Positions 13,409 to 60,110 of a stretch of 64,000 nt of DNA are shown one piece after another. Both the position numbers and the translations under genes were made by a program. Location: positions 12,214 through 76,213 of the forward strand of contig JAYTCK010000013.1 in assembly GCA_043736515.1 (NCBI GenBank), written 5' to 3'. This DNA comes from a bacterium (GTDB lineage Bacteria > Patescibacteriota > Minisyncoccia > Phycocordibacterales > UBA6899). Positions within the stretch are counted from its first letter, which is position 1. Every line of letters starts with the position of its first letter. The notes under the pieces were generated by a model that saw only the letters and a list, made by a program, of their open reading frames with translations, made no database searches and was not told the DNA's origin.

Positions 13409-13858
13409 TCAATTTTGCGTAATTATTCCAGCGTCATTAACCTGGATTTTATGAGTTCTTTCATAGAGCATAATGGTAATCGTTCCTGTCGCAGTAGGTA
13501 TTCCTGATACTCGAGCAAAAATAATTTCGTCTTCCTCGCTATTAATATTTGTGCCCGCGGGAAGTGGGAACATCTCGTCACGTGAAACAAGACGCGTACT
13601 ATGGGTATCACCCTGAAAAAGCACATAGCTCGTCGGTAAGAGTTTCACTCCATGTGCACTCCCCTCCATTCCCAATCGAGCCCTTGATTCTGCGTTGCGA
13701 AGCGCACTCAATATGCCAGTTGTGGTTTCATCGGCAACTTGAAACTGATAGAAACGAAATCCTACAGGAAGAGCGAGCGCAAGCAATGCCGTGCCCAGGG
13801 AAAGTACGAGAAGTATTTCGATTATTGAAAAGCCTTTTTGGGGTGATTGTAACCGCAT
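13409..13858 (-). CDS. Prepilin-type minor pilin, FimT/GspH-like
   Basis: QKGFSIIEILLVLSLGTALLALAL: G/F cleavage site with Glu +5. Confidence 0.7.
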   Translation of the reverse strand: MRLQSPQKGFSIIEILLVLSLGTALLALALPVGFRFYQFQVADETTTGILSALRNAESRARLGMEGSAHGVKLLPTSYVLFQGDTHSTRLVSRDEMFPLPAGTNINSEEDEIIFARVSGIPTATGTITIMLYERTHKIQVNDAGIITQN

Positions 13859-13902: not shown

Positions 13903-15033
13903 TTATCTTCCTGCACTCGATGTAAACTGGTAGATCGGCATAATGATTGCGATTGCAATAAAGGCGACCATAACACCCATGACAAGGAGAAGTACCGGCT
14001 CAATAACCGTAGGTAAGCGCTTCGTCATGGTATACACCTCTTTGCGATAGTATTCGGTAAGATACCCAAAGGTTTCGTCGAGCGTACCGCTTTTTTCTCC
14101 GACTGCAAGAATGCTCGTGAAGTCGCGCGGAAAAAGCTTGGGGTATCCTTTAAGTGCGGAGGCGAGGGTGGTCCCTCGTTGCACTTGCTTGCTGACGTCA
14201 ACGATGGCCTCCCTGTAGCGCAAGTTTGTTGCACCTTCTGCCGTTACATCGAGAATTTCATAGATTGAAAGCCCACCGTGAAAAAGCGTGGTGAAGAGTT
14301 GTCCTACAAGCGTCAGCTGATACTCACGGAGCATGCGTCCAACAAAAGGAATTCGGAGATACATACCGTGAAGCACACGCCGTACTGGAAGCAAACGATT
14401 CAGAAAAATAACAAGTACGGCAATGGCAGCGCAGAGTAGTGCGATGATAAACCATGACTCTTGAATCGTATTGGTGATCCAGAGGAGAATGCGTGTCGGA
14501 AGTGGGAGCTCCCCTTTCATTTGAGAAAAAACGGGAAGCAGTCGCGGGAGCACTAAAAGCGAGAGTCCACTCGATACTCCAATGGTCGCGACGAATACGA
14601 TGGCGGGGTAGAGCATTGCACCATGTACTTCCCTTTTAATGTCCGCATTGTGCTCAAGCCAATCAGCCAAAAAATTGAGGTTCTCATCAAGTGTTCCCGA
14701 GGCCTCACCTGCTTTAACTACCGAAATCATGACGTCTCCAAATACTCGGCGATGCTTTGCGAGCGCGTCAGTAAGTGTGACGCCAGACTCAACGTCATTT
14801 TTCATTTTGAGCAAAATCTTGGAAAGCCGTGGCGTGGCGGTGCTGGAAAGCTCCTCGAGAGACTCGTTGATCGTCATTCCACTCTTCAGCATGAGTGAAA
14901 GATTTTTAGAAAAGTGCACCAATTCTGCGGTTCCTATGCCGAACATATCTCTATAGTATACAGCATCCTGAATAAAGCATGGAACATAAAAAGTTCCAAA
15001 ATAAGCTGCCGGAAAAATCGTGGGGGGCACCAT
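13903..15033 (-). CDS. pilC: Type IV pilus inner-membrane platform protein PilC (GspF family)
   Basis: Two GspF-type domains and three TM segments. The ORF-track version extends to 15276 and would overlap the RT gene. An internal Met (MVPPTIF...) at 15033 is the likely start. Confidence 0.85.
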   Translation of the reverse strand: MVPPTIFPAAYFGTFYVPCFIQDAVYYRDMFGIGTAELVHFSKNLSLMLKSGMTINESLEELSSTATPRLSKILLKMKNDVESGVTLTDALAKHRRVFGDVMISVVKAGEASGTLDENLNFLADWLEHNADIKREVHGAMLYPAIVFVATIGVSSGLSLLVLPRLLPVFSQMKGELPLPTRILLWITNTIQESWFIIALLCAAIAVLVIFLNRLLPVRRVLHGMYLRIPFVGRMLREYQLTLVGQLFTTLFHGGLSIYEILDVTAEGATNLRYREAIVDVSKQVQRGTTLASALKGYPKLFPRDFTSILAVGEKSGTLDETFGYLTEYYRKEVYTMTKRLPTVIEPVLLLVMGVMVAFIAIAIIMPIYQFTSSAGR

Positions 15034-15101: not shown

Positions 15102-16097
15102 TTAAAACTCCCAAAAAGAAAGAATCTGCTGCTTTAAGCCATGAGCATTCCCATGACTCAAGAGTCCAAGATAGGAATTGATTGTTTCTGCCTTGCCTTT
15201 TTTTGCTCTGATCCCCCGAAGCATTCTTTTCTTCGTCGCTGTTCGCAGTACACGATGATCGGGAAAATGCACCCACCCAAGAAAGTCCACGCCGGATGCG
15301 AATGCCCGAAGCGACACCTTGTTGGGATGAAGTTCCAATTTCAACATTTCCCCCAAAAACTCTTCAATGCGTGGTAGCAGAGTTTCAAGCAGACTTTTGT
15401 CTTCCGAAAAAAAGACAAAATCATCCGCATAACGAATATAATATTTTGCTTTGAGTGTATGCTTTACAAATTGATCAAATTCGTTCATGTAGATATTCAC
15501 CAAGAGTTGGGAGGTCAGATTACCGAGTGGAAGACCCTTCCCGGGTGCGGTGCTCTCAAAGCTTTCAATCACACGCAGAAGCAACCAAAGAATATCTTGG
15601 TTCGTAATATATTTTTTAAAAATACTCATCAATATCTCCTGATCAATCGAAGCAAAAAATTTGCGAATATCACACTTCAGCACCCAGCATGTCCGTGTGT
15701 GATTCTGAGAGACTTTGTATCCAAGAGCACGGAACCGATCAATTGCTCTGTGTGTCCCCTTTCCTTCACGACAGGAATACGAGTCTGCGATAAACATGCG
15801 ATCAAAGTAGGGATAGAGAATGCGGTAGATGGCATGATGTAGCAATCGGTCGCGCACTGAAGCTTTGTGGATATTGCGCGGTTTGGGGTCGGAGATATTG
15901 AAGGCGTAATATTCACCATGGCGATAGGTCTTCCCTTTCAGATCGGCATGCAAACAAAAAACGTGGTCTGACAATTGATACTGAAATTCCTGCACATCAC
16001 TCTTTTTTCTCTTTCCCTTTAAGAATCCTCTCCACGCCGCGAGCAAATTTTCCACAGAAATGATATCCTCATATGTATGAATGAACTGAATACCCAT
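15102..16097 (-). CDS. Diversity-generating retroelement (DGR) reverse transcriptase
   Basis: YADDFVFF catalytic box. The DGR-specific LGNLTSQ motif replaces the canonical QGxxxSP. N-terminus ENLLAAWRGFLKGKRKK. ORF track starts at TTG 16133. ATG 16097 is more likely. Confidence 0.85.
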   Translation of the reverse strand: MGIQFIHTYEDIISVENLLAAWRGFLKGKRKKSDVQEFQYQLSDHVFCLHADLKGKTYRHGEYYAFNISDPKPRNIHKASVRDRLLHHAIYRILYPYFDRMFIADSYSCREGKGTHRAIDRFRALGYKVSQNHTRTCWVLKCDIRKFFASIDQEILMSIFKKYITNQDILWLLLRVIESFESTAPGKGLPLGNLTSQLLVNIYMNEFDQFVKHTLKAKYYIRYADDFVFFSEDKSLLETLLPRIEEFLGEMLKLELHPNKVSLRAFASGVDFLGWVHFPDHRVLRTATKKRMLRGIRAKKGKAETINSYLGLLSHGNAHGLKQQILSFWEF

Positions 16098-16110
16098 ACA
16101 CCAAAGGTTA

Positions 16111-16120
16111 CCCCCCCCCC
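16111..16120. repeat. Homopolymeric C10/G10 tract between the divergent avd and RT starts
   Basis: ACCCCCCCCCCG on the + strand, 13 nt upstream of RT ATG 16097 on the minus strand. Confidence 0.8.
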
Positions 16121-16154
16121 GAGCATTTTGCAACCCAAACTCATCCCAGTTGTT

Positions 16155-16508
16155 TTGAAATTAAAAGACACTTACGGAGTGTGGCAAAACTATCTCAACC
16201 ACTTTCCCAAGGCCAATCGTTTTACCCTTGGATCAAAAATTGACGACGTATTTCTTGGAGCAATTGAGTATTGCTTTCTAGCAAGTTACGCATCCGCCGG
16301 TGACAAACTCATATTTATCGACAAAGCGATATCGCGGGTCGATCTCATAAAATTGCTTTTGCAACTCGCGTGGGATATTCAGGCGCTTGATACGAAAAAA
16401 TATGTTCACCTATCGGAATATTTAGCGGAGAGCGGAAAGATGCTGGGTGGATGGCGACGACAAATTGCAAACAAAACTCCCGAGACTATTGCTCGGGAGA
16501 AATTATAA
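16155..16508 (+). CDS. avd: Avd-like accessory variability determinant (four-helix-bundle DGR protein)
   Basis: About 117 aa from a TTG start (the ORF track extends to ATG 16077, which would overlap the RT start). C-terminal GKMLGGW motif typical of bAvd. Lies between RT and TR, but on the opposite strand to RT, TR and target. Confidence 0.55.
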   Translation: MKLKDTYGVWQNYLNHFPKANRFTLGSKIDDVFLGAIEYCFLASYASAGDKLIFIDKAISRVDLIKLLLQLAWDIQALDTKKYVHLSEYLAESGKMLGGWRRQIANKTPETIAREKL

Positions 16509-16513
16509 GAGTA

Positions 16514-16642
16514 GCGAACCCCAAGGAAACGGTAGTTGCCATTCCAGTCATCGTTCCGCCAGTTGAGGTTGAGGTTGCGCTTCGAGCCATTCCTGTACAG
16601 ATACGGTACGTTCCGATTGCCGTTCACCTTCGCGACCGAACC
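16514..16642 (-). repeat. DGR template repeat (TR), 129 bp
   Basis: Identical to VR 16990-17118 except at 15 positions. All 15 are T on the + strand (A on the coding/minus strand) in TR, against C/A/G in VR. Read in frame, the TR encodes Asn (AAC) at the variable positions. Confidence 0.85.
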
Positions 16643-16903
16643 CTGTGCAGTAGGTCATCCTCACCACCACCCCTTGAACTTTCACAGACGGCGCCATCCG
16701 CGAATACATTCTCGAGATTGTATCGTATTTGTGATCTTTTTATCACCAATCCTACTGCGCCAACTTTTTCAATTTTTTAACAATCTTATGCAACTCTCCC
16801 TGCAATCGTAACCGCAAGAATTCTCGGCATAAGCGTTGCGGACAAATTATTCACAGCCGTAACCGTGAATTTTTCATTTATCATGATTACTATATCAAAA
16901 AAA

Positions 16904-16926
16904 GTCCCGCACGAAACGTGCGGGAC
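16904..16926. promoter_or_regulatory. GC-rich hairpin downstream of VR (DGR hairpin/cruciform-like element)
   Basis: GTCCCGCAC-GAAAC-GTGCGGGAC, perfect 9-bp stem, about 50 nt 3' of the target-gene stop. Confidence 0.6.
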
Positions 16927-16974
16927 AAGGGTCCAAGGTACAAAGGGTCAAAGTGCGGACCCAAGGAGCGAGAG

Positions 16975-17571
16975 TCAGAGTGCGGAGTTGCGAACCCCAA
17001 GGAAACGGTAGTCGCCAAACCAGTCAGCGTCCCGCCAGCCGAGGCTGAGGTCGCGCTCCGAGCCATCCCTGCACAGATACGGTACGTCCCGACTGCCGTC
17101 CACCTTCGCGACCGAACCGAGAGCAACGATCGGGAACTTACGTTGCTCTTCGGGGTTTGCAGCGGCGGAGGCGAGCAAGTGTTCGATCTTCCCGGGTTGA
17201 TAGCCCTCGGCGATAATCAGGCGTTCGGCTTCGTCCGCTGAGACGACACGATCGAAGTGGAAAAGCTTGCGCTCGACCACCACGATACCAGAGCCGACGA
17301 CGGAAAAGCGTTTGGTGGTGATGTCGCTGTTGGTCCAGTCGTAGCGTCCGGCGGCGATCATTTGTTCGAGGGTGAGGGCGTAGTTGATGGCGAGGCGGGT
17401 GCCGCCACTCACTTCTTGTGGCGGATTGAGTCCCGCAAGGAACTTCTTCACATGCGTGAGGATATTCCCCTCCGAGAGACTCTTGACGTCGGCCGGAGTC
17501 CAGCCGTTACGCTCGAGTGCGTGATCAAGCTCCGCTGCTTGACGGGAAGACATAACAAACTTGTCGCTCAT
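16975..17571 (-). CDS. DGR target protein (198 aa) with a C-terminal variable repeat (VR 16990-17118)
   Basis: C-terminus ...DVPYLCRDGSERDLSLGWRDADWFGDYRFLGVRNSAL is encoded by the VR. Only 4 codons follow the VR before the stop. Confidence 0.8.
   Translation of the reverse strand: MSDKFVMSSRQAAELDHALERNGWTPADVKSLSEGNILTHVKKFLAGLNPPQEVSGGTRLAINYALTLEQMIAAGRYDWTNSDITTKRFSVVGSGIVVVERKLFHFDRVVSADEAERLIIAEGYQPGKIEHLLASAAANPEEQRKFPIVALGSVAKVDGSRDVPYLCRDGSERDLSLGWRDADWFGDYRFLGVRNSAL
16990..17118 (-). repeat. DGR variable repeat (VR)
   Basis: See the TR entry. Adenine-specific TR/VR mismatch pattern. Confidence 0.85.
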
Positions 17572-17913: not shown

Positions 17914-19623
17914 TTATGAGCTCTTTGTTGCACGCACAATCTCCTCGAGAGTTGTTTCTCCTGAAAGCACCTTGGTAATGCCGTCTTCGAGCATGGTTTT
18001 CATCCCTTCGGCGCGTGCCTGTTTGGTGATGATTTCGGCGGACGAACGGGCTGCAATGAGTGCGCGAATCTGGTCGGAAACTTCCATGACTTCAAAGATT
18101 CCAAGGCGGCCGTGATAACCCGTATCGCCGCATAGCTTACATCCATTCTTTGCGCCACGGTAAAAACGAATTTTTGCAATGTCCTTTTTTCCGGAAAATT
18201 CTTTGATCAACTTGGTCAGCTCCGGTTCACTTTTTAAAAGTGCTAATTCATCTCCCCCAAGGAAATAATTGGTTCGACATCTGTCACAAACACGTCGCGT
18301 GAGACGTTGAGCAATAATGATATTGATCGAAGAAGAAATAAGGAAAGGCTCAATCCCCATTTCAACAAGTCGAGGAAATGTTGTTGATGCATCATTGGAG
18401 TGTAATGTTGAGAGAACAAGATGTCCGGTCATTGCAGCATTCACCGCAATTGACGCAGTCTCGTTATCGCGAATTTCTCCAACCATCACAATATCAGGAT
18501 CTTGGCGTACGATAGAACGCAGTCCTGTTGCAAAGGTAAGTTTCTTTTTTTCGTTCACCTGCGTTTGTTGGACATGCTCAACAGCATACTCAACCGGGTC
18601 TTCAATTGTCATAATATTCACATCAGATGTATTCAGGATTTGGAGGATAGCGTAGAGGGTCGTTGTTTTTCCAGCACCTGTCGGTCCCACAGTAAGAATC
18701 ATGCCGTATGGCTTGCGTGACGCGCGTTCTACTTTTGCTAAATCGGAAGTATCAAATCCAATGTCAGTGAGTGAGAAGCGCTGTGACTCTTCAGCCAAAA
18801 GACGCATGACAATATTTTCTCCGTGCGTCACGGGAAGTATTGAAAGACGCACATCAAATTTTTCCGGGCGTTCATTTGGGGTAAGAGGGTCTGCCGCAAA
18901 ACTAAATCGTCCGTCCTGCGGAGCCGCGTGTTCATCAGTACGAAGTCGAGACATGATCTTAAGGCGAAACACAACCTTCTCATGAAGTGGCAGTGGGTAG
19001 CGCGATAGTTCATGCAGTATGCCGTCGATACGAAACCTAACCGACACATGTGCGAGGAGTGGTTCAATATGAATATCAGACGCACGAGAAGAGTGCGCAT
19101 ATGCAAGAATGTAACTTACAAATGTCACTACGTCTTGATCGCGAAATTGTACCTTGAGCTGCTCCAATGTTTTTTCGATTTTATCTCCAAAACTTTTTTC
19201 ATATTGCCTGAGCACTTCACGCAATGCTTTAGGGGTCGCATACGAGATCAAGACCGTCTTCCCATGCTTGCGTTCAATCATGTTAAAAAATTCGTAGTTG
19301 TTGGGATTTGCAGTTGCAATGGAGAGAGACTTCTCATCTTGCCGAAAAATTACCGCCTCCTGACTGCGTGCAACAACCTCGGGAAGAAGTTCGAGTAACT
19401 CTTTTGGAATCCTCTCTTGTGCGAGGTCGATGAAATTAACTTGAAAAATACTTGCGAGCAATTGTCCAAGATGTGCGTCGGAAATAAGTCCGCTCTGCGG
19501 CAAGTATTCGAGGATTGGAATCCCCTTTGCTTCGACATCTTTTGCAGCCTGATCAAACTCCTCGGCTGTCACAAGGTTCATGCCGAGTAAGTATGTTTTA
19601 ATTTGTGCTACGGAAATTTCCAT
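17914..19623 (-). CDS. pilB: Type IV pilus assembly ATPase PilB (GspE family)
   Basis: Walker A GPTGAGKTTT, GspE N-terminal domain, C-terminal tetracysteine motif. Confidence 0.9.
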   Translation of the reverse strand: MEISVAQIKTYLLGMNLVTAEEFDQAAKDVEAKGIPILEYLPQSGLISDAHLGQLLASIFQVNFIDLAQERIPKELLELLPEVVARSQEAVIFRQDEKSLSIATANPNNYEFFNMIERKHGKTVLISYATPKALREVLRQYEKSFGDKIEKTLEQLKVQFRDQDVVTFVSYILAYAHSSRASDIHIEPLLAHVSVRFRIDGILHELSRYPLPLHEKVVFRLKIMSRLRTDEHAAPQDGRFSFAADPLTPNERPEKFDVRLSILPVTHGENIVMRLLAEESQRFSLTDIGFDTSDLAKVERASRKPYGMILTVGPTGAGKTTTLYAILQILNTSDVNIMTIEDPVEYAVEHVQQTQVNEKKKLTFATGLRSIVRQDPDIVMVGEIRDNETASIAVNAAMTGHLVLSTLHSNDASTTFPRLVEMGIEPFLISSSINIIIAQRLTRRVCDRCRTNYFLGGDELALLKSEPELTKLIKEFSGKKDIAKIRFYRGAKNGCKLCGDTGYHGRLGIFEVMEVSDQIRALIAARSSAEIITKQARAEGMKTMLEDGITKVLSGETTLEEIVRATKSS

Positions 19624-19634: not shown

Positions 19635-20006
19635 TTATTTACCGGAAGGAGGGAGTACGCAGATTGCTTCAACAATATTGTGGACAGTGTTTTCGCCTTT
19701 CATAAAGTATGCGGTTGCACCTAGCGATAATGCCTCCTCTTTATCATGCTCTTGCGCCAGTGTGGAAAAAATAAATATCGTGGCATGTTTCGCTTCGGGT
19801 AAATTGTGGATTTTTTCAAGCACTTCAAAACCATCTGTTTTGGGTAAAATCAAATCGAGGACTACAACATCGGGTTTCCATTCTTTTACTTTTTGAATGC
19901 CCTCCTCTCCACCAGCAACAACAGCTACCTCCATGTTTGCCTGATGCAATTCAGACTCGAGGAGCGTGCTCAAGAATTTATCATCGTCAATTACTAAAAC
20001 TTTCAT
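19635..20006 (-). CDS. Single-domain response regulator (receiver)
   Basis: MKVLVIDDD..., DVVVLDLILP, K near the C-terminus. Confidence 0.8.
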   Translation of the reverse strand: MKVLVIDDDKFLSTLLESELHQANMEVAVVAGGEEGIQKVKEWKPDVVVLDLILPKTDGFEVLEKIHNLPEAKHATIFIFSTLAQEHDKEEALSLGATAYFMKGENTVHNIVEAICVLPPSGK

Positions 20007-20107
20007 AAAGATACTATAGCAGGAGTTAGGGTCTGGTGGCTAGGGTATGGGGTTTAGTGAAATGCTCGATGCAATTCTTCACTAGACACTAGTGGCTATA
20101 CCCTGCA

Positions 20108-20746
20108 TTATTTGTGTCCTAGTGGACATCCACTATGTTTGCGTGCCGGGCAATATTGTCGCCCATATTCGATAAGTAGGTACGTTACGCGGAACCAGTC
20201 CTTTTGAGAAAACATTTCCATGAGGTCCTTTTCGATCTTGTTTGGCAGAATTTCATCCGAAAGACCGAGTACCCGAGCAAGACGTTTCACGTGTGTGTCC
20301 ACAGCAATCCCCTCCACTATCCCATATGCATTCCCCAAGACGACGTTTGCTGTTTTTCGTGCCACACCGGGAATAAGCAGCATCTCCTTCATTGTTCGCG
20401 GCAATGTGCCATGAAACATCTGTTTCACCATACGTGCCGCAGCGAGAATATTTTTTGTTTTGTTACGATAAAAACCGGACTGAAAAATCATTTGCTCAAA
20501 TTCACGAGGATTTGCATGCACATAATCTTCAATTGTGGGGAATCGTGCAAAGAGAGCCGGAGTAATTTCATTAACTTTTTTGTCGGTACACTGCGCTGAA
20601 AGTTCCACTGCAACGAGAAGCTCCCAGTTATTTGTAAAACGAAGCATCATTCCTGCACCAGGAATAAGTCGTTTTAGTTTTTTTAAAATAGCTCTACCCC
20701 GCAACATGCGTGCACGTTTCTGAGATATCGTTTCATGACGTTTCAT
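20108..20746 (-). CDS. nth: Endonuclease III (HhH-GPD DNA glycosylase with 4Fe-4S cluster)
   Basis: LIPGVARKTANVVLGNAYG helix-hairpin-helix. C-terminal Cys cluster CPARKHSGCPLG. Confidence 0.9.
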   Translation of the reverse strand: MKRHETISQKRARMLRGRAILKKLKRLIPGAGMMLRFTNNWELLVAVELSAQCTDKKVNEITPALFARFPTIEDYVHANPREFEQMIFQSGFYRNKTKNILAAARMVKQMFHGTLPRTMKEMLLIPGVARKTANVVLGNAYGIVEGIAVDTHVKRLARVLGLSDEILPNKIEKDLMEMFSQKDWFRVTYLLIEYGRQYCPARKHSGCPLGHK

Positions 20747-21258
20747 ATACTCGAATCGAATACAGGGCGACCGACATACGGGGGTATCGCAGCAACAGAT
20801 TCTCCGGAGATTGTGAGATTGTGCACGTCCACAACAAAGCGAGTGAGCGCTCCATTACTCCTTCCGTAGAACATTAGTGTTGTTGCGGTGAGCCACGTGA
20901 ATGAGACATCATCCGCCTCAACAGAAAACGCACCTTCAAGAACATATAAAGCACGTGGGCGGGCGACCTCAACATACACCGCAGGCATTCCAGAGTGAGT
21001 GGGAGCAACGTATGCTCTCTTTGTTCGCAAATGATTCGCATACTGTGCATCTATGGGCACGCTTGGCGCATTTGTAATTTCTCTTATCACAAGCACGCCA
21101 TCGATTGATTGTCCCACCGTGACACTTTGTGTTTCACGGTACATTGCTAATTTTGCTGTTTCAGGTGAAACACGAGAAAAAAAATCTCCGGATGTTTCAT
21201 ACGCGAATGCGAGCAGGGCAATAAGGAGGGCGATAATGGTGAACAGGTATCGTGGCAT
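20743..21258 (-). CDS. Hypothetical membrane-anchored or secreted protein
   Basis: N-terminal TM/signal segment LFTIIALLIALLAFA. No recognisable domain. Confidence 0.35.
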   Translation of the reverse strand: MPRYLFTIIALLIALLAFAYETSGDFFSRVSPETAKLAMYRETQSVTVGQSIDGVLVIREITNAPSVPIDAQYANHLRTKRAYVAPTHSGMPAVYVEVARPRALYVLEGAFSVEADDVSFTWLTATTLMFYGRSNGALTRFVVDVHNLTISGESVAAIPPYVGRPVFDSSI

Positions 21259-21347
21259 ATTTTTAGTGTAGCGAAGTAGAAAAAAAGTACAACCCAGCCC
21301 CAGTTTTGTTTATGGGGATTGCAAAACTGGAGCTGGGCGAGCGGGAT

Positions 21348-21836
21348 TTACACTTTGGTGATAATTTCTACTACCCCCGTAGCACAATCAAAATAGACAT
21401 TACGCCCCACCGTTCCGCCGATCACTTCTGTTTCAATTTTTATTCCCAATTCAAGGAGGCGAGCTCTGGCAGACTCAGTGTTTTCAAAGCCAATACCTTT
21501 TTTGTCACCATCAAGAAGTGTAAACATATGTGCGCCTCCCACGAGTTTAGCAACAAGACTTTCGCGCTTAGCTCCCCGTGCTTCAACCTCAAGGAGAAGG
21601 ATATCAATTGCCTTGTCCGCATATTTTGAAAAAAGTCTTCCCTCACTATCCCGGGTTGTATTTTGGTATTGATCGTCCCTTGCACGGGGAAGGATCGCAT
21701 GGGCCATTCCACCCACACGAGCAAGTCCGTCATGAAGCACAACAACAACGCATGAGCCAACACCATTTGTCACAATGGTGTACTCGTGATTTCCTGCAAA
21801 CAATTCCGCGATGCGAATTTCGATAGTTTTGCTCAT
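21348..21836 (-). CDS. cheD: CheD chemoreceptor glutamine deamidase
   Basis: GVGSCVVVVLHDGLARVGGMAHAILP matches the CheD signature. Confidence 0.8.
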   Translation of the reverse strand: MSKTIEIRIAELFAGNHEYTIVTNGVGSCVVVVLHDGLARVGGMAHAILPRARDDQYQNTTRDSEGRLFSKYADKAIDILLLEVEARGAKRESLVAKLVGGAHMFTLLDGDKKGIGFENTESARARLLELGIKIETEVIGGTVGRNVYFDCATGVVEIITKV

Positions 21837-21840
21837 ATCA

Positions 21841-22491
21841 TTATGAGACTATTTTACTTGTGAGCCTCAAAATTTCTTTTACGGCCTCTGGTCCAAGAAA
21901 AAGATACATGCGGCCTGTAACTTCTTCACCAAGATGACAGTCAGTTGCGTCTGGTGATGGATCAACACAAATGGTTACATTCATGGAAAAAAATTCTTCG
22001 TGCCGGGCAAACATTGAGGCGGTCAGCGAGTTGAAGATTGCTCCACCCATATCAACAACAACATTCGGTACGGAATGCTCGAGTGAACAATGAAGGAATT
22101 TTTCAAGTCCCTGGAGCATTCCTCCTGTCAGCACATTTCCTACTTCTTGAAAGACGGACCTGTCGAATGCATCAAGCGCGCGAAGATCTCCTACTTTTTT
22201 TCCGGAAAGGACTTGAAGAAGGTGTATCGCTGTGTCACGAGGGAAGAGCAGAAAAACATATCCGTCCAAACCACCCGAAATGCGGAGCAACACCGCAAGG
22301 GCAATATCTTGAGGCTTATCGATAAAGTGCGCAGCACTGACAGAAGTTTTGAGAGACGACATGGGAACACTGATCGTTGTCCTCTGTCCTACTAATTTCG
22401 AGAGAGTTGTGCCAGCATGAGACACGCCAATATTTAAAAGTTCAGCAAGCTGGTCTTTTTCATCTGCTGTAAGTTGGAGTAGTGATGTCAT
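21841..22491 (-). CDS. cheC: CheC-family CheY-P phosphatase
   Basis: N-terminus EKDQLAELLNIGVSHAGTTLSKLVGQRTTISVP is CheC/FliY-like. Confidence 0.7.
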   Translation of the reverse strand: MTSLLQLTADEKDQLAELLNIGVSHAGTTLSKLVGQRTTISVPMSSLKTSVSAAHFIDKPQDIALAVLLRISGGLDGYVFLLFPRDTAIHLLQVLSGKKVGDLRALDAFDRSVFQEVGNVLTGGMLQGLEKFLHCSLEHSVPNVVVDMGGAIFNSLTASMFARHEEFFSMNVTICVDPSPDATDCHLGEEVTGRMYLFLGPEAVKEILRLTSKIVS

Positions 22492-22496
22492 AAAAA

Positions 22497-24239
22497 TTAA
22501 TGTGAAGATACTTCTGTAGAAGTCGTTTCACGCAAAATGTCCGCATGAGTGTTCTCCAGTATATCTCCGAATGCGCGAAGGAGTAAACCGTGGGTATCCA
22601 GGAGAAGAACGGTGCGCCCATCGGGAAGAAGGGTTGAACCCGAAAAACCTTGAATTTCGCGCAGGACGGGTGGAAGTGATTTTACCAAAAGCTCCTGCTC
22701 GCCCACACACGAATCAACAACGAGAGCTACTTCTTCTCCTTCTATGGATAGGAGTACAGCGTGAAGCTCTTGTCCCAATACTGTTTTCCGAAATGTATCG
22801 CCAAATGTTATTCCAAGGAGTCGACTAAGCCAAAAGATGGGTACAGGTTTCTCGTTTAATACAATGTTGGGTTGATGGGCACTGCGCACAATAGTATCCG
22901 GAGCAATATCAAATGTCCGCACAATACTCGTAAATGGGACTGCAAAAGTAAATCCACTCGCACGCACAATAAGCACCTTTACCGTCGCAAGAGAAACGGG
23001 TAAGTCGAGCAAAAAGCGTGTCCCTCCTTTTTCAGAAAGTGGCGACACAATACTCACGTGTCCCCCGACATCTTGAGTAAACACGCGCACCGCCGAAAGT
23101 CCGACACCTCTTCCGGAGATATCGGTCACCTCAGTGTTTGTTGACATGTTGGGATTAAACAGGATGTCAGCAATTTCATTATTACGGAGCACCACTCCAA
23201 CTTCTTTACTTACTATTCCACGTTCAATTGCAACTTCTCGTACACGTTCGTAATTTATTCCTGCACCGTCATCTGAAACGATTACATGCACACGATCATT
23301 TTTTCGCTCCGCCTTAAGTGTCACTGTTCCGCTCTTTACAATGCCATGATCAACGGCATTTCGTAGAAGATGTGCGAGGGCTCCACCTAAACCTTCAAGC
23401 ACCGTACGATCGAGTTCGACATCGCTTCCTTCTACGTGAAACGACACCTGCTTGCCTTCTCGAAGCGACAAATCCCGGATCATGCGAGGGAACTGCCCAA
23501 ATATCTGTTCAACGGGAACCAACCGTACACGCAAGAGTTCACTCTGTGTTTCAGAAAGAAGACGCGCAAGTTCACTGAATAACCCTTTAAACTCTTGGAC
23601 AAAAAATAACTTTTGCTTCAGCATGGGGTCTGCAGTTGTTTTCGAAATATCCACAACCGGCTCTAGTATCGTGTCGAGCTTAAGGCGAAGCATGAGCATT
23701 TCTTCAAAAAGTCCCATGAGTGCGTCAAGACGTTCAACCGCAACGCGCACTGTTGTTGGCGGAACATAAGGAGCACTAATCAGATTTTTATTTACCACAG
23801 GAGTCGACACTGGTGGGGTTATGGGTGCTGTTTTTTCGGAAGTCCCGTTTGTGGATGGCTCGAGAAGCACCTTCAATGCACTTACGGTTGTCTCGACAGA
23901 AAGCTCTTTGTCAGCTTCTTTAATAGAAGCGAGCGACTGACCAAGATGATCTGTAGCAAGAAGTGCTGCGCTTACTGCCTCTTTGGAAAGCACGAGTGTG
24001 CCTTGTTCACACGCACGAAACACATCTTCCATAAGATGTGCGAGTCGCGCCATTTCCGTATAGCCCATAGTCGCTGAGGATCCTTTAATAGTATGTGCAC
24101 TGCGCATCAAGGTAGCGTAATGCTCAAGGTTACGCGGATCTTCTTCCAGCAAAAGAAGTGTGCGTGAAAGAGTGCTCAGCTGATCTTCGGCTTCCGTACA
24201 AAAAAGGTCTTTAAACTTACTTCTGGCATCAGGAGTCAT
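22497..24239 (-). CDS. cheA: Chemotaxis histidine kinase CheA
   Basis: HPt domain HTIKGSSATMGY, HATPase LLRNAVDHGI and DDGAGI, C-terminal CheW-like domain. Confidence 0.9.
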   Translation of the reverse strand: MTPDARSKFKDLFCTEAEDQLSTLSRTLLLLEEDPRNLEHYATLMRSAHTIKGSSATMGYTEMARLAHLMEDVFRACEQGTLVLSKEAVSAALLATDHLGQSLASIKEADKELSVETTVSALKVLLEPSTNGTSEKTAPITPPVSTPVVNKNLISAPYVPPTTVRVAVERLDALMGLFEEMLMLRLKLDTILEPVVDISKTTADPMLKQKLFFVQEFKGLFSELARLLSETQSELLRVRLVPVEQIFGQFPRMIRDLSLREGKQVSFHVEGSDVELDRTVLEGLGGALAHLLRNAVDHGIVKSGTVTLKAERKNDRVHVIVSDDGAGINYERVREVAIERGIVSKEVGVVLRNNEIADILFNPNMSTNTEVTDISGRGVGLSAVRVFTQDVGGHVSIVSPLSEKGGTRFLLDLPVSLATVKVLIVRASGFTFAVPFTSIVRTFDIAPDTIVRSAHQPNIVLNEKPVPIFWLSRLLGITFGDTFRKTVLGQELHAVLLSIEGEEVALVVDSCVGEQELLVKSLPPVLREIQGFSGSTLLPDGRTVLLLDTHGLLLRAFGDILENTHADILRETTSTEVSSH

Positions 24240-24286
24240 GTGTCTATTGTATCAGACATCATCCCGAAGTGAGCGTGGGGTAGCTC

Positions 24287-25372
24287 CTAGAATTTGCTGA
24301 CCCGATCAAGAATCCAATTAGGGATTTCCTCGAGGGCAAGTACTGCATCAACAACACCTTCGTGAAGGGCGCTTTTGGGCATAAATGGCACCACTGCTGT
24401 TTCTGGATCCTGGACAACTGTTACACCGCCATAAGATTTTATTGCACGGAGTCCCAATGTCCCATCACTTCCCATTCCTGAAAGCAACACCCCAAATACA
24501 CGCGAACCGTAACTCTTGGCAATTGTTTCCATGGTTTGGTCGATGACACCGTTTTCACTATCAGGGTTTGGAAAAGACAAGACAAATCGATGAGTACCAT
24601 CAGCCTCATCTTTTTTCGAATGCTCCTTATGCAGAAGAGAATATCCGCCGGGTACCACAAGTGCCGTGCCGGGCATAAATGCGTCATTGCCTTTTGCTTC
24701 CCGCACAGAAAGTCTGACGGTGCGATCGAGTCGTTCAGCAAAAAGCTCCGTAAAATATTTTGACATGTGCTGCACAACAACAAAAGCGATCTGTGGGGTT
24801 GGTGGAAAAATAGTGAGGAAGTGCTCAACTAATGGTGGTCCTCCAGTTGAAGCACCGATTACAACCACCGAAAGCGGGCTGTCATTGTGTGCATTACTTG
24901 GGATTGGTTTAGTACCGTGTATTTCAAGGTATGCGTATGCTTTCCTAATTTTTACTTGTTGAACCCCCACCTCATATATTTTTGAAACAATGGATTCTGC
25001 GATTTTTTCCAAATCCAAAGAAACCTCACCTGAAGGTTTTGCTATCACATGTGCTCCCGACTCACGTAACATCTGAAATACTTTTTGCCCGTCGGTGCCG
25101 TCAAAAGCGGAAAGCATGATGATCGCGGGAAGGATTTGATCGCCAAGCATAATCTCTGCCGTAGCTTCAATGCCATTTTTCTGAGGCATATGATAATCCA
25201 TCGTGATCACATCAGGCCTGAGATCTCGAGCAAGCCGCACAACTTCAGTCCCGGTGCTTGCAGTGCCAACAACCGTAATGCCGCTGTGCGCACGAAGAAG
25301 CTCGACGACATAGGTACGAATAAAAAATGAATCATCCGCTACGAGCACGCGAATGTCATCATTGTGATCCAT
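24287..25372 (-). CDS. cheB: CheB methylesterase (receiver plus methylesterase domain)
   Basis: RVLVADDS...TMDYHMP, VVIGASTGGP. Confidence 0.9.
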   Translation of the reverse strand: MDHNDDIRVLVADDSFFIRTYVVELLRAHSGITVVGTASTGTEVVRLARDLRPDVITMDYHMPQKNGIEATAEIMLGDQILPAIIMLSAFDGTDGQKVFQMLRESGAHVIAKPSGEVSLDLEKIAESIVSKIYEVGVQQVKIRKAYAYLEIHGTKPIPSNAHNDSPLSVVVIGASTGGPPLVEHFLTIFPPTPQIAFVVVQHMSKYFTELFAERLDRTVRLSVREAKGNDAFMPGTALVVPGGYSLLHKEHSKKDEADGTHRFVLSFPNPDSENGVIDQTMETIAKSYGSRVFGVLLSGMGSDGTLGLRAIKSYGGVTVVQDPETAVVPFMPKSALHEGVVDAVLALEEIPNWILDRVSKF

Positions 25373-25399
25373 AAATATACAAAAGGCGCAGAGAAAGAG

Positions 25400-25765
25400 T
25401 TACGCGCTCAAATAGTGCTTTGCTTTATCAAGCACCTGGTCACGATCAAAAGGTTTCACAACGTAATCAAGTGCACCGAGAGACTTTGCTTCGGAGATCA
25501 TTTCCTGCTGTCCTACCGCAGACACAACAATGATTTTTGCTTCCTTGCCAATTTCGCGGAGTACATCCATTCCATTGAATTCCGGCATGATCATATCAAG
25601 AAATACAAAATCAGGATGTTCACTCTTGTATTTTTCAAGTCCCTCTCGTCCGTTACTTGCTTCAACAAAAGAGGAGTAGCCGGCGCTTTCAAAAATATCT
25701 CGAAGCACCTTCCGCATAAATGCGGAGTCATCAATAATTAAAATTTTCTTTGAATTGGTTTCCAT
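25400..25765 (-). CDS. cheY: CheY-like response regulator
   Basis: KILIIDDSAFMRKVL, FVFLDMIMP, VVKPF. Start taken at the internal Met METNSKK. Confidence 0.85.
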   Translation of the reverse strand: METNSKKILIIDDSAFMRKVLRDIFESAGYSSFVEASNGREGLEKYKSEHPDFVFLDMIMPEFNGMDVLREIGKEAKIIVVSAVGQQEMISEAKSLGALDYVVKPFDRDQVLDKAKHYLSA

Positions 25766-25810
25766 AATGTAAGAATAGTGTAACATACGTGCCCTAATTC
25801 CGTGAAGTCT

Positions 25811-26464
25811 CTACGGTGCTAGTGGTGCGTCAGCAACGTGTAAAAGATCTTCTTGATTCAATATTTCCTCAAAATTAAGCCATAATACGGGTCGGAGTTG
25901 GTTTGTTTCAGGCAAAGGAGTGGGTGCTACTGGTTCCGGCCTGATCATAAAATCTTGTACATTATTTTGCTGCTGGAGTGGGAGCATATACATGAACATT
26001 CCTTTTACATAGCGTGGCGGAATATGTGCCGCTATGACGGGGTCAGGCGCAACAACATCCTTTTGCAAAATATGCACCACTGTTTTGGGGTGATCGACAA
26101 GAACTGCAAAATAGTTATTCTGTGTGTGTATGACAAAAAGATAACTTGGAATAAGTGGTCTCGTCCTCGCAAGATGCATGCGCTTGAGAATATCGAGTAC
26201 GACAACAACCTTACCGCGCATATGAAAAATCCCTGCGATGGATATTGGGGCATTCGGAACAATCGTCACAGGAGGGATTTTCATCACGTGATCAACATCG
26301 AGCGCCGGGACAGCATATATTTCCCCATCAATCTCAAAAAGAAAAAATTGCATGCGGTCATTCTCTTTTGTTGCATCTGATAGAGAATTAAATGCTTCAA
26401 TTGTTGGATCGGTTAATGTTTCCATACTATAGAGTATTGTAGCGCGGAGTGGGGTGCACAACAA
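25811..26464 (-). CDS. cheW: CheW-like coupling protein with a C-terminal extension
   Basis: FLFEIDGEIYAVPALDVDHVMKIPPVTIVPNAPISIAGIFHMRGKVVVVLDI. Confidence 0.75.
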   Translation of the reverse strand: MLCTPLRATILYSMETLTDPTIEAFNSLSDATKENDRMQFFLFEIDGEIYAVPALDVDHVMKIPPVTIVPNAPISIAGIFHMRGKVVVVLDILKRMHLARTRPLIPSYLFVIHTQNNYFAVLVDHPKTVVHILQKDVVAPDPVIAAHIPPRYVKGMFMYMLPLQQQNNVQDFMIRPEPVAPTPLPETNQLRPVLWLNFEEILNQEDLLHVADAPLAP

Positions 26465-26585: not shown

Positions 26586-26648
26586 TCTCGCCCCGACAAT
26601 ATGAAAAAAGAACCTTCATTAGGTTCTTTTTTTATATTGTCGGGGCGC
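26586..26648. terminator. Long nested perfect hairpin abutting or overlapping the tRNA-Pro 3' end
   Basis: GCCCCGACAATAT-[GAAAAAAGAACCT TCAT TAGGTTCTTTTTT]-ATATTGTCGGGGC. Confidence 0.5.
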
Positions 26649-26712
26649 CGGGATTCGAACCCGGAGTCGCTCGCTCCCAAAGCGAGAATGTTAGCCGTTA
26701 CACCACGCCCCG
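26640..26712 (-). tRNA. tRNA-Pro(UGG), no encoded CCA
   Basis: Reverse complement CGGGGCGTGGTGTAACGGCTAACATTCTCGCTTTGGGAGCGAGCGACTCCGGGTTCGAATCCCGGCGCCCCGA. Anticodon loop TTTGGGA. Confidence 0.85.
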
Positions 26713-26782
26713 TATATTTACTACCTTGTGACACACGCTCATTTCGCACAAGCACTGAGTGTTAGCCGTCTCCGTACCGGAG

Positions 26783-26870
26783 CTGTACACCTTTTGGATT
26801 TTTCGGAAAAAACCTCAAAAGGTCTTGCGGTGTGGCTCCCATAGGAATGGGTTCCCTTTTGCCACACCTC
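26783..26870 (+). repeat. tRNA-associated structured repeat, copy B. Followed at 26871-26883 by a duplicate of the first 13 nt of tRNA-Pro. A D-loop fragment (TGTTAGCCGT) lies on the other side at 26760-26769
   Basis: CTGTACACCTTTTGGATTTTTCGGAAAAAACCTCAAAAGGTCTTGCGGTGTGGCTCCCATAGGAATGGGTTCCCTTTTGCCACACCTC. Confidence 0.7.
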
Positions 26871-26943
26871 ACACCACGCCCCGTTAAACAACAAAACGCT
26901 CATCTGAGCGTTTTGAGTATAGCAGATAGTGAAACAAAGACAA

Positions 26944-28095
26944 TCAGAAGTTGCGGAATACGTCTCGGGCCATATCGCGAGAAGTTGTGTATCTCATTTT
27001 TGCCATATCCATATTTAACTTCTCGATTTGAGTCCTTATTTGTGCTTGCTTTATATTCTTACGGTCAATTTGGTCATATATATTCGCGACCCCATGTTCG
27101 GCTCTCAAGCTTTTTGTATCTCTACGGACTTCGTCCTTCACCGTCTTTATTTCCGTCGTTGCATCAAGACGAATCTCCTGCTCATTTAATTTAGCAATTT
27201 GGGCTTCATATCTTGCCTGTTCGGCGGCCGAGGGGTTGGGCTTGGAAAGAAATGCTGCCCGCGCCTCTGCCCGCTGGGTTTTCAGTTGCGCCTTGCTTAC
27301 ATCATACCTTGCTTCCATTTGCATGGGTTGGGTTCTGTTCTCTACACGTGACTCAACCTCGGCAATTCGGGAATTTCCGCCTGCTCGTAACAATAGCTCC
27401 TCTTTTTCTCTATCTAGCTTCTCATGCTGCATCGCAAGATTTTGTTGCTGTTGTTGCATACGTTCAATTCGTTGTCCTCCTTGCACTCCACGCTCAATTG
27501 GACGGATAACGCCTCCTTCAATTGTTTTTCCAAGTCTTGGATTTTGAGCTCCGACAACACCGGCCACTACAGGGATAAAGTCAACATAGCCCGCCGCTTC
27601 TGCATTGTCGGTGTGCGAAAAAGCCGCAATTGCGACCACTACGCCGGTAGTTACATGACGCACAGCTTTAAGCGATCCATTCATTAATTTCTTTAACAGA
27701 CCACTGCTTTGCTCAGCTTTTTCCGCATTCTCTGGGCTCTCCACAGCAGCAAAAGTACCGCCCACTGCTGCAACACGAGCAGCTTGGTTTGATTTTCCTT
27801 CCACATCGAGGGCATTAAGCGCCATCGCTTCGGTTCCCTCCCCTACCTCTGCCGCTAACCCTTGATTCTCTGGAGTAAGATTGGTAAATTCCATAACTGC
27901 ATTTTGTGTGGCAGGTGGAAGTTCTGACATTTCTATAATCTCAATTGATTCAGAGTCTGGAGACTCATTAAGATTAGTGACATCAGATATACCGCTCTCC
28001 TTCTCTGCCTCTGATATATGTACCGGAATTATGTCTTCGTGAATCACAACTCCTTCCTCCTCGGGTATTTCGAAACTTTGGAATTTCTCGCTCAT
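26944..28095 (-). CDS. Hypothetical coiled-coil protein (Q/E/K-rich)
   Basis: Long heptad-like region (MQQQQQNLAMQHEKLDREKEELL...). No catalytic motifs. Confidence 0.4.
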   Translation of the reverse strand: MSEKFQSFEIPEEEGVVIHEDIIPVHISEAEKESGISDVTNLNESPDSESIEIIEMSELPPATQNAVMEFTNLTPENQGLAAEVGEGTEAMALNALDVEGKSNQAARVAAVGGTFAAVESPENAEKAEQSSGLLKKLMNGSLKAVRHVTTGVVVAIAAFSHTDNAEAAGYVDFIPVVAGVVGAQNPRLGKTIEGGVIRPIERGVQGGQRIERMQQQQQNLAMQHEKLDREKEELLLRAGGNSRIAEVESRVENRTQPMQMEARYDVSKAQLKTQRAEARAAFLSKPNPSAAEQARYEAQIAKLNEQEIRLDATTEIKTVKDEVRRDTKSLRAEHGVANIYDQIDRKNIKQAQIRTQIEKLNMDMAKMRYTTSRDMARDVFRNF

Positions 28096-28104
28096 ATAAA
28101 AATA

Positions 28105-28383
28105 TTACGCTAATGCTTCTTCGTATTCACGACGCTCTTGCTTCACAATTTCGTGAAGCTTTTTTAAATTTCCCTGAGCATCGAGCTTTTTCTTCAAATT
28201 TTTTACAATCGCATCGATACCAAACGGATCTTCCTCGCAGACTTGTATAAACATCAGGAGCATCACGTCGGCCACAAACGGAATTCGTCCAGAAAGAATT
28301 TTTTTATCTTCAGCAGGAATATGCGATTGTTCAACAATTGCAGTTGCTTTTTCAGTCAGTTCCTTGCGTGATTGTTCTATCAT
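28105..28383 (-). CDS. Small hypothetical protein
   Basis: ORF only. Confidence 0.3.
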   Translation of the reverse strand: MIEQSRKELTEKATAIVEQSHIPAEDKKILSGRIPFVADVMLLMFIQVCEEDPFGIDAIVKNLKKKLDAQGNLKKLHEIVKQERREYEEALA

Positions 28384-29100: not shown

Positions 29101-29605
29101 ACTAATCTAAAACCGTTCCACATGAAACATTCTCAAACACAGAACGGCATGGTACGGCAATTAAGCCGGCATACGCACTGTGCCAATCAGCAATGAAACT
29201 TCCTGGCAATGTTCCACGTGTAACATCTGATTGCCACGATCATGTCTCTTCTGAAATGCTTGGCTTTTTATGATTTATTAGACTTTTTTAAAAAATCCTT
29301 CGCGAAGCTATCCACTGTTTAAAAACCCGCGCTTTATCCTGCGAGGTTCAACCTCGTAGGATGTTATATAAAGCCTAATTCTTGAAGGAATACTGACTAT
29401 TAAAAGAGGTCTCATGTGTAGCTGCCATAAAAACTGAGCCGAAGCACTGAGGGTAGTGTCTGTGTATAAACATGTGGATAGTGTGCATAAAGGACACTCA
29501 AGGACACAATTTTGTCCTTTATAAACACTATACACAGGGTTATCCACAGTTGTGCGCACAGGAGGTGACAAAAAGCGCGAGTTGCTATTTAATTAGAAAA
29601 GAGCC

Positions 29606-30007
29606 TTGCCGTATGGAGGTATTGTGGAAAACAGACTGAAAGTTTTGGTTGTTGAAGATGATTCTGATCTTCAAGATGCCTACCGAATGAGCCTTGAGCA
29701 TCTTGTAGACGTTGTCACTGCCGGCAGTATTTCCTCAGCAATGACTGCGCTGCGACGTGAAAAAAAGTTTTCGCTTATTATTCTCGATGGGAATGTCCCA
29801 CGGCGCGATAATGAGCCTTTGATGCAGACGACGGTTGAACTTGCACAACACATCTCGTTTGTACTTGGCATCCCCATGATTTCCGCTTCCGGCGACGAGA
29901 AATTAAACGACATACTTGTCTGCAGAGGCTGTATACGAGCAGACAAGTTCACTGCTGTTCAAGAAGCGGAGAGGTTCCTTGCGGGAATTAATGCCAAAAT
30001 AACCTAG
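29606..30007 (+). CDS. Receiver-domain-like protein (degenerate response regulator)
   Basis: KVLVVEDDSDLQD, LIILDGNVP. Confidence 0.5.
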   Translation: MPYGGIVENRLKVLVVEDDSDLQDAYRMSLEHLVDVVTAGSISSAMTALRREKKFSLIILDGNVPRRDNEPLMQTTVELAQHISFVLGIPMISASGDEKLNDILVCRGCIRADKFTAVQEAERFLAGINAKIT

Positions 30008-54541: not shown

Positions 54542-54569
54542 TAAAACACAATTTATCCGCTATAATAGT

Positions 54570-56120: not shown

Positions 56121-56132
56121 GAATGATTCATA

Positions 56133-58766: not shown

Positions 58767-58784
58767 GATTGGTATTACGTAATT

Positions 58785-59552: not shown

Positions 59553-59576
59553 TAAAATGTGCAGAGAGTATCAGTT

Positions 59577-60095: not shown

Positions 60096-60110
60096 GACGG
60101 TCAAGGTGAT

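Follow-up and report, generated by a model that had tools for sequence, protein, structure and literature searches.

A conserved F1-like chemosensory module joined to a type IV pilus operon in a Lloydbacteria-like bacterium, with a possible role in steering pili

We studied a chemosensory (che) gene module and the type IV pilus operon next to it in a 64-kb stretch of DNA, from here on the window (contig JAYTCK010000013.1, positions 12,214 to 76,213), of an ultra-small bacterium from the Candidate Phyla Radiation (CPR, or Patescibacteria). The genes are best read as the conserved F1-like chemosensory core of a Paceibacteria/Lloydbacteria-like CPR bacterium, ancestrally joined in its clade to the pilus operon and steering the pili rather than flagella; we hold this reading with some, not strong, confidence. 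The parts themselves are known, while the arrangement is conserved and CPR-specific. The remaining window, with many open reading frames (ORFs) without family match, a type IV secretion system (T4SS)-like cluster, a diversity-generating retroelement (DGR) and no biosynthetic operons, fits a CPR genome.

In the mechanism that we propose, CheW and the four-domain kinase CheA would form a complex with a small methyl-accepting receptor, or a few of them, whose genes lie elsewhere in the genome. CheA would phosphorylate CheY and CheB, and probably also a receiver protein whose gene is coupled to pilB. Phosphorylated CheY, the pilB-linked receiver or both would then act on the pilus motor (PilB, PilC or PilM) and bias pilus extension, the likely use being surface movement, or the finding of a host and attachment to it. 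CheC would remove the phosphate, CheD would deamidate the receptors and partner CheC, and CheB would demethylate or deamidate the receptors.

The six che genes lie in the order cheW-cheY-cheB-cheA-cheC-cheD, with 4-47 nt between neighbours in a six-frame ORF listing. All coordinates are those of the window, and genes are on the minus strand unless stated otherwise. CheW (25811-26464; Pfam CheW, E = 5.6e-20) is given as the longest ORF, with a TTG start; the gene call in the assembly of L001, a contig of the same organism from a different sequencing run, starts 13 codons further downstream. Next come a CheY-type receiver of the Thermotoga/archaeal type (25400-25786; Response_reg, E = 5.5e-28), the methylesterase/deamidase CheB (24287-25372; an N-terminal REC domain and CheB_methylest), CheA (22497-24239; Hpt, HATPase_c and CheW domains), the CheY-P phosphatase CheC (21841-22491; Pfam CheC/CheX) and the receptor deamidase and CheC partner CheD (21348-21836; Pfam CheD).

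At a distance of 89 nt, cheD is followed by an ORF of 171 aa without family match (20743-21258), which an earlier note on this DNA had overlooked. It overlaps by 4 nt with nth (20108-20746; Pfam HhH-GPD; TIGR01083 nth, E = 1.7e-58), the housekeeping gene of endonuclease III, here inside the cluster. A stand-alone receiver gene heads the pilus operon 101 nt further on (19635-20006; receiver-only in Pfam), and 11 nt after it begins pilB, which encodes the assembly ATPase (17914-19623; MshEN and T2SSE, with TIGR02538 type_IV_pilB as the top model). The earlier note had read the same series on the minus strand, from cheW to the receiver between 26464 and 19635 and then pilB, and Pfam confirms every gene of it.

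Judged by gene content and nearest families, F1-like (the Thermotoga, Bacillus and archaeal type) is a supported description of the module, since CheC and CheD are both present and the nearest families are Thermotogales, haloarchaeal and Bacillota. The kinase has the Hpt, HATPase_c and CheW core of the F1 class without a fused receiver, and CheC and CheD lie beside it. It should be kept in mind, as a point against this assignment, that the label comes from gene content and nearest families and not from formal class hidden Markov models (HMMs).

In CheA the P1/Hpt domain (residues 11-93) is followed by a poorly conserved linker of ~70 aa, which is too short for a P2 domain. P3 starts at residue 163, P4 covers residues 284-415 and P5 residues 422-553. 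P3 is divergent: H-kinase_dim stays below the threshold in Pfam (16 bits), and the region aligns to P3 of Thermotoga maritima. Together, P3-P5 align to T. maritima CheA 1B3Q with E = 8e-59. There is a single Hpt, and Pfam finds no Response_reg domain in the protein even at E = 1. Functional CheAs with four domains and no P2 are a common type (PMC10542144).

The top NCBIfam models for the che proteins are CheA_Halo, CheC_Thtogales, CheD_Thtga / PRK13490 and CheY_Halo, with all scores below the equivalog cutoffs; CheA_Halo gives 320 bits for CheA, compared with 212 for the E. coli type. The best solved relatives of CheA, CheC, CheD and CheY are T. maritima structures. Among the matches listed from GTDB genomes, the best non-CPR relatives of CheA include Bacillota, Archaea and Thermotogae, at 30-38% identity. 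In a neighbour-joining tree (200 bootstraps) our CheA and its relatives form a clade among archaeal, Bacillota and Thermotogae CheAs, with low bootstrap support among these outgroups.

The earlier note had called the arrangement Pil-Chp-like. This stands in so far as a chemosensory pathway probably addresses the pilus, but it does not hold as a statement of kinship. For true membership in the Pil-Chp (Tfp) class speak the adjacency to pilus genes and the two single-domain receivers of the window (25400-25786 and 19635-20006, 38% identical to each other), which loosely recall PilG and PilH. Characteristic of the class are a ChpA-type kinase that has several Hpt domains and ends in a receiver and, in the cluster, a PilJ-type receptor and a PilK-type CheR. 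Here, CheA carries a single Hpt and does not end in a receiver, the cluster includes CheC and CheD and no such receptor or CheR, and the nearest families are those named above. In our judgement the domain architecture refutes membership, which we regard as extremely improbable.

The che module is predicted to be functional because its catalytic residues are intact and the ratio of nonsynonymous to synonymous substitution rates (dN/dS) is low, 0.03-0.07. CheY has a complete set of phospho-acceptor residues, with DD, D, S and K aligned to T. maritima CheY (E = 5e-32). Alignment to a solved CheB shows that the Ser of GASTGGP, the His of QHM and the Asp of GMGxDG are all kept, together with the receiver Asp. 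Both E-x2-N active-site motifs are kept in CheC (aligned to T. maritima CheC 1XKR), as are the catalytic Thr, Cys and His positions in CheD (aligned to T. maritima CheD 2F9Z). Compared with a 90%-identical relative (L093), dN/dS is 0.03 for cheA, 0.04 for cheC and 0.07 for cheD, values that are rough as dS is near saturation. From these ratios, the three genes are clearly under purifying selection.

Linkage to the pilus operon

That the che module is physically joined to the pilus operon, as claimed before, is borne out by the relatives: the order is the same in L089, L105 and L107, and tighter in L106. CheA homologues of >50% identity come from Candidatus Lloydbacteria and Paceibacterota metagenome-assembled genomes (MAGs), and those of ~40%, among the matches listed, from Uhrbacteria and other Patescibacteria. 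The che genes are part of a conserved block that reads xerC - exoIII - cca ... UPF0102 - 92 aa - ~350 aa - (tRNA in the window) - cheWYBACD - ~170 aa - nth.

Downstream of nth the relatives show two states. In state A, nth is followed by REC-pilB-pilC-pilin-giant pilin-...-pilM-pilin. This state is found in the window, in L001 (here from another sample), and in L089, L105 and L107, with CheA identities of 63%, 54% and 41%. In L106 (53% CheA identity) the pilus operon, starting with REC-pilB, comes directly after cheD, and nth after the pilus operon. In state B, seen in L003/L096, L005, L087 and L097, a convergent phosphoglucomutase gene (pgm) follows directly after nth; L008 is likewise without the pilus block. 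In the window, pgm (5484-6818, plus strand; Pfam) is convergent with the pilus operon and abuts its far end as a boundary marker, so that states A and B differ by exactly the REC-to-pilin block.

In the CheA tree, L107 (state A) is basal with 98-100% support, followed by L106 (A). Further, L087 (B) pairs with L089 (A) at 99%, and L105 (A) is sister to a group of L008 with L003 (B) and L097 (B) at 98%. Linked lineages are thus basal and interleaved with unlinked ones, and state A therefore looks ancestral to the clade, with the pilus block lost from the site at least twice. A recent insertion of the pilus block at the nth/pgm junction had been suggested by the first three relatives, in which nth abuts pgm. 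It is contradicted by the contexts retrieved through PilB homologues and by the CheA tree, which show the linked arrangement to be basal and widespread.

The linkage is also seen in other forms. In L108, a more distant CPR-like locus, the order is MCP-cheW-Y-B-A-C-D-HisKA kinase-REC-REC-pilB-pilC (MCP, methyl-accepting chemotaxis protein), unlike that of L107. In L092, from Uhrbacteria, a dCache MCP-cheW-...-cheB-A-C-D series lies next to convergent pilC-pilB, a PilT-like gene and a pilin. This recurrence in several arrangements is the main argument suggesting that che and pil are functionally coupled.

The receiver at the head of the pilus operon keeps the full set of phospho-acceptor residues (DD, D, S and K). 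The protein is nearer to generic receivers (OmpR/PhoP, Spo0A, archaeal CheY) than to CheY specifically, and it is 38% identical to the CheY of the cluster. Its orthologues, at 57-71% identity, lie directly upstream of pilB in every state-A relative (L089, L105, L106 and L107), and the gap between REC and pilB is 4-11 nt in three lineages. Among the Pfam-scanned ORFs of the window there is no other histidine kinase. CheA is therefore the simplest phosphodonor for the pilB-linked receiver, and probably phosphorylates it.

With regard to transcription, the che unit begins after a tRNA-Pro(TGG) gene (26639-26712; ARAGORN and Rfam), as judged from this gene and from terminator-like hairpins, one of which (26633-26603, minus strand, read from the sequence) follows the tRNA just upstream of cheW. 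The intergenic gaps from cheW through pilB contain no terminator-like site whose stem exceeds 5 pairs. Co-transcription of the che and pil genes, which we infer for the region, becomes doubtful across the DGR described below.

The che genes and the pilus operon may also be independent neighbours in a small and gene-dense genome, where the che module serves some 'alternative cellular function' and the receiver answers a different kinase encoded elsewhere. A number of observations are in line with this, and weigh against a module that steers the pili. The che and pil genes are separated by nth and the unrelated 171-aa ORF. Ahead of the receiver gene lies a promoter-like site with an extended -10, so che and pil may be separate transcription units. 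Four or five relatives, those in state B and L008, keep che without the pilus block at the site, and the linkage is thus dispensable. L108 has the gene of a classical HisKA kinase between che and REC-REC-pilB, beside the equivalent receivers, which means that receivers upstream of pilB can have a kinase of their own; the receiver of the window resembles the generic OmpR/PhoP or Spo0A type more than CheY. It also weighs against a steering of the pili that a query resembling the retraction ATPase PilT matches only PilB within the window. What speaks most against an obligatory co-transcription is that the linkage was lost repeatedly and that nth intervenes.

On the other side, che and pil are adjacent in three arrangements and in distant CheA clades, with cheD directly followed by REC-pilB in L106, and the window encodes no other histidine kinase. 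CPR bacteria are typically without flagella, so that the pilus is the one known machine for motility or attachment that CheY could address. Taking these points together we find independence unlikely, although it is a serious alternative. We prefer a che module that steers the pili; the pilus is probably its output, as judged from the gene neighbourhood, which in itself is a point to be held against this step.

Receptors and adaptation

In agreement with the earlier note, we find neither an MCP nor CheR in the window. Pfam gives no match to MCPsignal or CheR in 70 ORFs, which cover almost every non-overlapping ORF of 120 aa or more, together with several shorter ones. Custom HMMs run against all six-frame stop-to-stop ORFs of at least 30 aa in the window give best E-values of 0.37 for MCP and 0.55 for CheR. 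These HMMs were built from real genes in 78 non-CPR CheA loci fetched from GTDB genomes. The MCP set was seeded with a Pfam-annotated Uhrbacteria MCP, and the CheR set with an E. coli CheR sequence, used solely to retrieve real sequences. The contigs with an identical CheA, L001 (13.9 kb) and L002 (3.6 kb), both fall inside the window.

It had also been argued that CheB and CheD imply the presence of receptors. This is reasonable, and a related genome provides a link. With the signalling domain of the Uhrbacteria MCP as query, we found a family of short CPR MCPs. One of them, P0126, is an orphan MCP of 414 aa (L101:10001-11245) with MCPsignal only, in which Pfam sees no sensor domain. It lies between the guanylate kinase (gmk) and NAD kinase genes, and in the contigs fetched no che gene or CheR is nearby. 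Its best match is the T. maritima receptor TM1143 (44H), with 7 residues of gaps in one arm. P0126 carries the tag A2845_05355 of Lloydbacteria RIFCSPHIGHO2_01_FULL, and the orthologous CheA P0057 the tag A2845_00305, with the same genome name and prefix. Since the name of the A2845 genome is attached to both proteins, the genome under study can be expected to encode a receptor elsewhere as well. By orthology, it is probably an orphan gene.

As to adaptation, further points have to be set against an ordinary, receptor-coupled pathway. In the 64 kb of the window there is no MCP to assign to this genome. All 15 CPR che loci (~235 kb) lack CheR; within 10 kb of CheA it occurs in 28 of 78 non-CPR loci and in 0 of 15 CPR loci (Fisher p = 0.004). 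Further, cheB is missing in two relatives, L097 (1019-3272) and L098 (385-1709), where cheY is directly followed by cheA, so that the methylesterase is dispensable in part of the clade. Methylation-based adaptation may thus be incomplete or absent. The absence of CheR at che loci and the losses of cheB hint at a reduced methylation-based adaptation, which is less than a genome-wide absence of CheR.

The same features could be taken as signs of decay, that is of the remnant of a chemotaxis system in which signalling has ceased after the loss of receptors and CheR. The window and the surroundings of che in close relatives are without MCP and CheR, L097 and L098 have lost cheB, and CheA has no P2. 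Set against this are the dN/dS values of 0.03-0.07, the intactness of every catalytic residue checked, and a six-gene order conserved even in lineages with as little as 41% CheA identity. In addition, the orphan MCP shares the Lloydbacteria genome name and locus-tag prefix with an orthologous CheA, and a CheA of four domains that lacks P2 is a common and functional form (PMC10542144). We consider decay very unlikely.

Another possibility is that the missing MCP is replaced by a non-canonical receptor encoded next to the cluster. Upstream of the che unit lie two genes without family match (26944-28383), for proteins of 383 and 92 aa. The 383-aa protein has an acidic N-terminus, a hydrophobic middle and a C-terminus rich in Q/E/K/R. 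It is kept mainly by position, with 15-25% identity among orthologues and no conserved motif, while orthologues of the 92-aa protein are 57-68% identical. The other candidate is the 171-aa protein between cheD and nth, in which a membrane anchor at the N-terminus is combined with a beta-rich domain of ~140 aa. It has no Pfam or NCBIfam match and is found at the same position in most relatives (23-54% identity). A single-sequence AlphaFold model has a pLDDT of 62, and Foldseek finds nothing below E = 0.01 in PDB (TM ~0.3).

Both the 383-aa and the 171-aa protein are thus conserved in position beside che in most relatives, and both have hydrophobic segments, as a receptor in the cluster would. 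The 383-aa protein was considered as a hidden MCP and rejected: it has no significant Pfam match, and a profile-profile comparison (hhalign) of its family with CPR MCPs gives a probability of 0.04%. Its low identity and lack of a conserved motif speak against it as well, as does its position, with the tRNA gene and terminators lying between its gene and cheW. As for the 171-aa protein, L106 does not have it, and it lacks a cytoplasmic domain of appreciable size. Canonical MCPs are present in related genomes. There is, in our view, little chance that either protein is the receptor, and an orphan MCP encoded elsewhere is the preferred explanation.

A more far-reaching reading would be that Paceibacteria-type CPR bacteria have a lineage-specific, F1-derived pathway that is ancestrally wired to the pilus through a dedicated receiver, translationally coupled to PilB, with a CheA without P2, one or a few orphan receptors and no CheR genome-wide, and that this pathway steers the pilus-based host seeking or attachment of non-flagellated episymbionts. 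This we put forward tentatively, as it appears rather less probable than its contrary. If the lack of CheR is true, adaptation would be left to CheC, CheD and CheB, or else the role of CheB would be limited to that of a deamidase or phosphate sink.

The pilus operon, the retroelement and other genes

The assembly parts of a type IV pilus are present in the window: PilB, PilC, PilM and prepilins (Pfam T2SSE with MshEN, T2SSF, PilM_2 and N_methyl). The pilus gene order is that of L105 and L106. Beyond pilB, the operon continues with the platform protein PilC (13903-14946; T2SSF), whose start at 14946 was set by comparing N-termini with orthologues. It is followed by a prepilin-like protein of 149 aa (13409-13858; Pfam scan), with a class III signal-like N-terminus, and by a giant prepilin-like protein of 933 aa (10601-13402) with a LVIVD (beta-propeller) repeat in Pfam. 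Next are prepilin-like proteins of 171 aa (10082-10597) and 138 aa (9662-10078), a PilM-TM-SH3 fusion (8027-9625; PilM_2, SH3_3), a prepilin-like protein of 172 aa (7503-8021) and, as the last gene of the operon, a pilin of 143 aa (6946-7377). In all, prepilin-like N-termini with the class III signal are found in six ORFs of the operon.

The 933-aa protein is 42-55% identical to its counterparts in the pilus operons of relatives. It is a plausible candidate for a pilus-tip adhesin. Among the ORFs of the window scanned with Pfam there is no match to peptidase A24, the family of PilD. Both PilT and PilD may be encoded elsewhere in the genome.

The earlier note had the che and pilus genes run continuously down to 6946. 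This does not hold, as a DGR cassette of ~2.5 kb with genes on both strands (15102-17571), including a promoter-like site and a terminator, splits pilB from pilC. Its target gene (16975-17571, minus strand) encodes 198 aa and has the variable repeat (VR) at its C-terminal end. A repeat search places the VR of 141 nt at 16985-17125 and the template repeat (TR), 87% identical to it, at 16509-16649. They are accompanied by bAvd (16077-16508, plus strand; Pfam) and a reverse transcriptase (RT; 15102-16133, minus strand; Pfam RVT_1) with LGNLTSQ and YADD motifs. The target gene lies between a sigma-70-like promoter with an 11/12 match (17762-17734) and a GC-rich terminator of 10 bp (16926-16904), which makes read-through from pilB to pilC doubtful.

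In the well-matched core of the repeats, all 15 differences between TR and VR are at TR adenines. Further, L001 is 99.63% identical to the window over 10.6 kb, and of its 39 mismatches 14 fall inside the 141-nt VR, all 14 opposite TR adenines (Fisher p = 3e-17). Since the variation between samples is concentrated in the VR, and there at TR adenines, the DGR appears to be active in nature. The RT was also considered as that of a group II intron or a retron. A group II RT is in fact the top NCBIfam model, with a score below the cutoff. The adenine pattern of TR and VR, the Avd protein and the LGNLTSQ motif identify the RT as being of the DGR type.

DGRs are abundant in CPR genomes, and the one in the window shares their classical anatomy: the RT motifs, bAvd, adenine-specific TR/VR differences and a VR at the C-terminus of a small target. 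It differs in lying inside a pilus operon and in having its avd gene opposite in direction to TR and RT. In the relatives examined (L089, L105, L106 and L107) there is no DGR at the site between pilB and pilC. The gap instead holds an ORF of 185 aa in L089 (7393-7950) and of 213 aa in L105 (12282-12923), and nothing in L106 and L107. It seems that this gap tolerates insertions.

A few other features of the window were noted. Upstream of tRNA-Pro, a segment of 157 nt (26714-26870, within 26714-26882) is absent from L001 of the same organism. The segment is bounded by a duplicate of the 5' end of the tRNA (cggggcgtggtgt), and could be a scar left by integration, or else a variant of the assembly. 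An inverted repeat of 37 nt (29460-29549, 84% complementary, 16-nt spacer) lies in an AT-rich stretch between the UPF0102 gene and an ORF with a weak, partial resemblance to a receiver (29606-30007, plus strand). Recombinases are found at 3335-4141, a serine-recombinase-like ORF with the C-terminal domains only (Recombinase, Zn_ribbon_recom), and at 36954-37907, a XerC/D-type tyrosine recombinase; the XerC gene is part of the synteny block that is common with Lloydbacteria. The T4SS-like cluster (54426-62713, plus strand) contains a PrgI-family protein (59664-60095), a VirB4/TraG-type ATPase (60920-62713) and ORFs without family match of 564, 877, 255 and 225 aa.

Comparison with known systems

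Attachment to host cells is the presumed way of life of CPR bacteria, whose main known machine at the cell surface is the type IV pilus. In Saccharibacteria, experiments tie pili to the association with the host. An intact and conserved Che module tied to a pilus operon would give a concrete and testable signalling route by which such tiny cells find or choose their partners. If this is true, a chemosensory system that controls pili would have been made from F1-type rather than Tfp-type parts. A combination of CheB and CheD without CheR, if confirmed genome-wide, would bear on how adaptation works in minimal systems. The component che and pil genes are routinely annotated in public MAGs; in full-text literature searches the type of cluster was undescribed in Patescibacteria, with only passing mentions of CPR chemotaxis genes.

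With Pil-Chp of Pseudomonas aeruginosa (PilG, PilH, PilI, PilJ, PilK, ChpA and ChpB) the window has in common that a chemosensory pathway lies beside pilus genes as their presumed controller, and that two single-domain receivers are candidate outputs. In P. aeruginosa, PilG and PilH act on the pilus. The kinases are different: ChpA carries numerous Hpt domains and a receiver at its C-terminal end, the CheA of the window a single Hpt and no receiver. Further, the Pil-Chp cluster includes an MCP and CheR and lacks CheC and CheD, while in the window the reverse is seen. Pil-Chp is reported to use methylation, with PilK and ChpB acting on PilJ (PMC12129077).

The best mechanistic precedent for a receiver that acts directly on PilB is Tax1 of Synechocystis (PixG, PixH, PixI, PixJ and PixL), where CheY-like and PatA-type regulators interact with PilB1 and orient pilus activity (bioRxiv 10.1101/2021.06.11.447907; PMC11181946). 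Tax1 differs in having receivers with PATAN domains, a photoreceptor MCP as input and a hybrid CheA, whereas the receivers of the window are plain single domains.

The F1-class systems of T. maritima, Bacillus subtilis and Archaea have the same set of CheA, CheW, CheY, CheB, CheC and CheD. The closest structures and top NCBIfam models are from Thermotoga or haloarchaea, and the orphan MCP of the related genome best matches TM1143. Unlike these systems, the window has a CheA without P2 and with a divergent P3 below the Pfam cutoff, and no CheR or MCP in the cluster, nor within 10 kb in relatives of its clade. There is no flagellar or archaellar context, the cluster being joined to a type IV pilus operon instead, and the NCBIfam scores are all below the equivalog cutoffs.

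The F1-type Che system of Archaea is laterally related to the bacterial ones, and addresses the archaellum, a machine of type IV pilus ancestry, through CheF. In the window no CheF-like adaptor is recognised; the 171-aa ORF has no family or significant fold match. Haloarchaeal models for CheA and CheY are the top NCBIfam matches for the proteins of the window. The target in the window is a bacterial PilB/PilC/PilM pilus instead of an archaellum.

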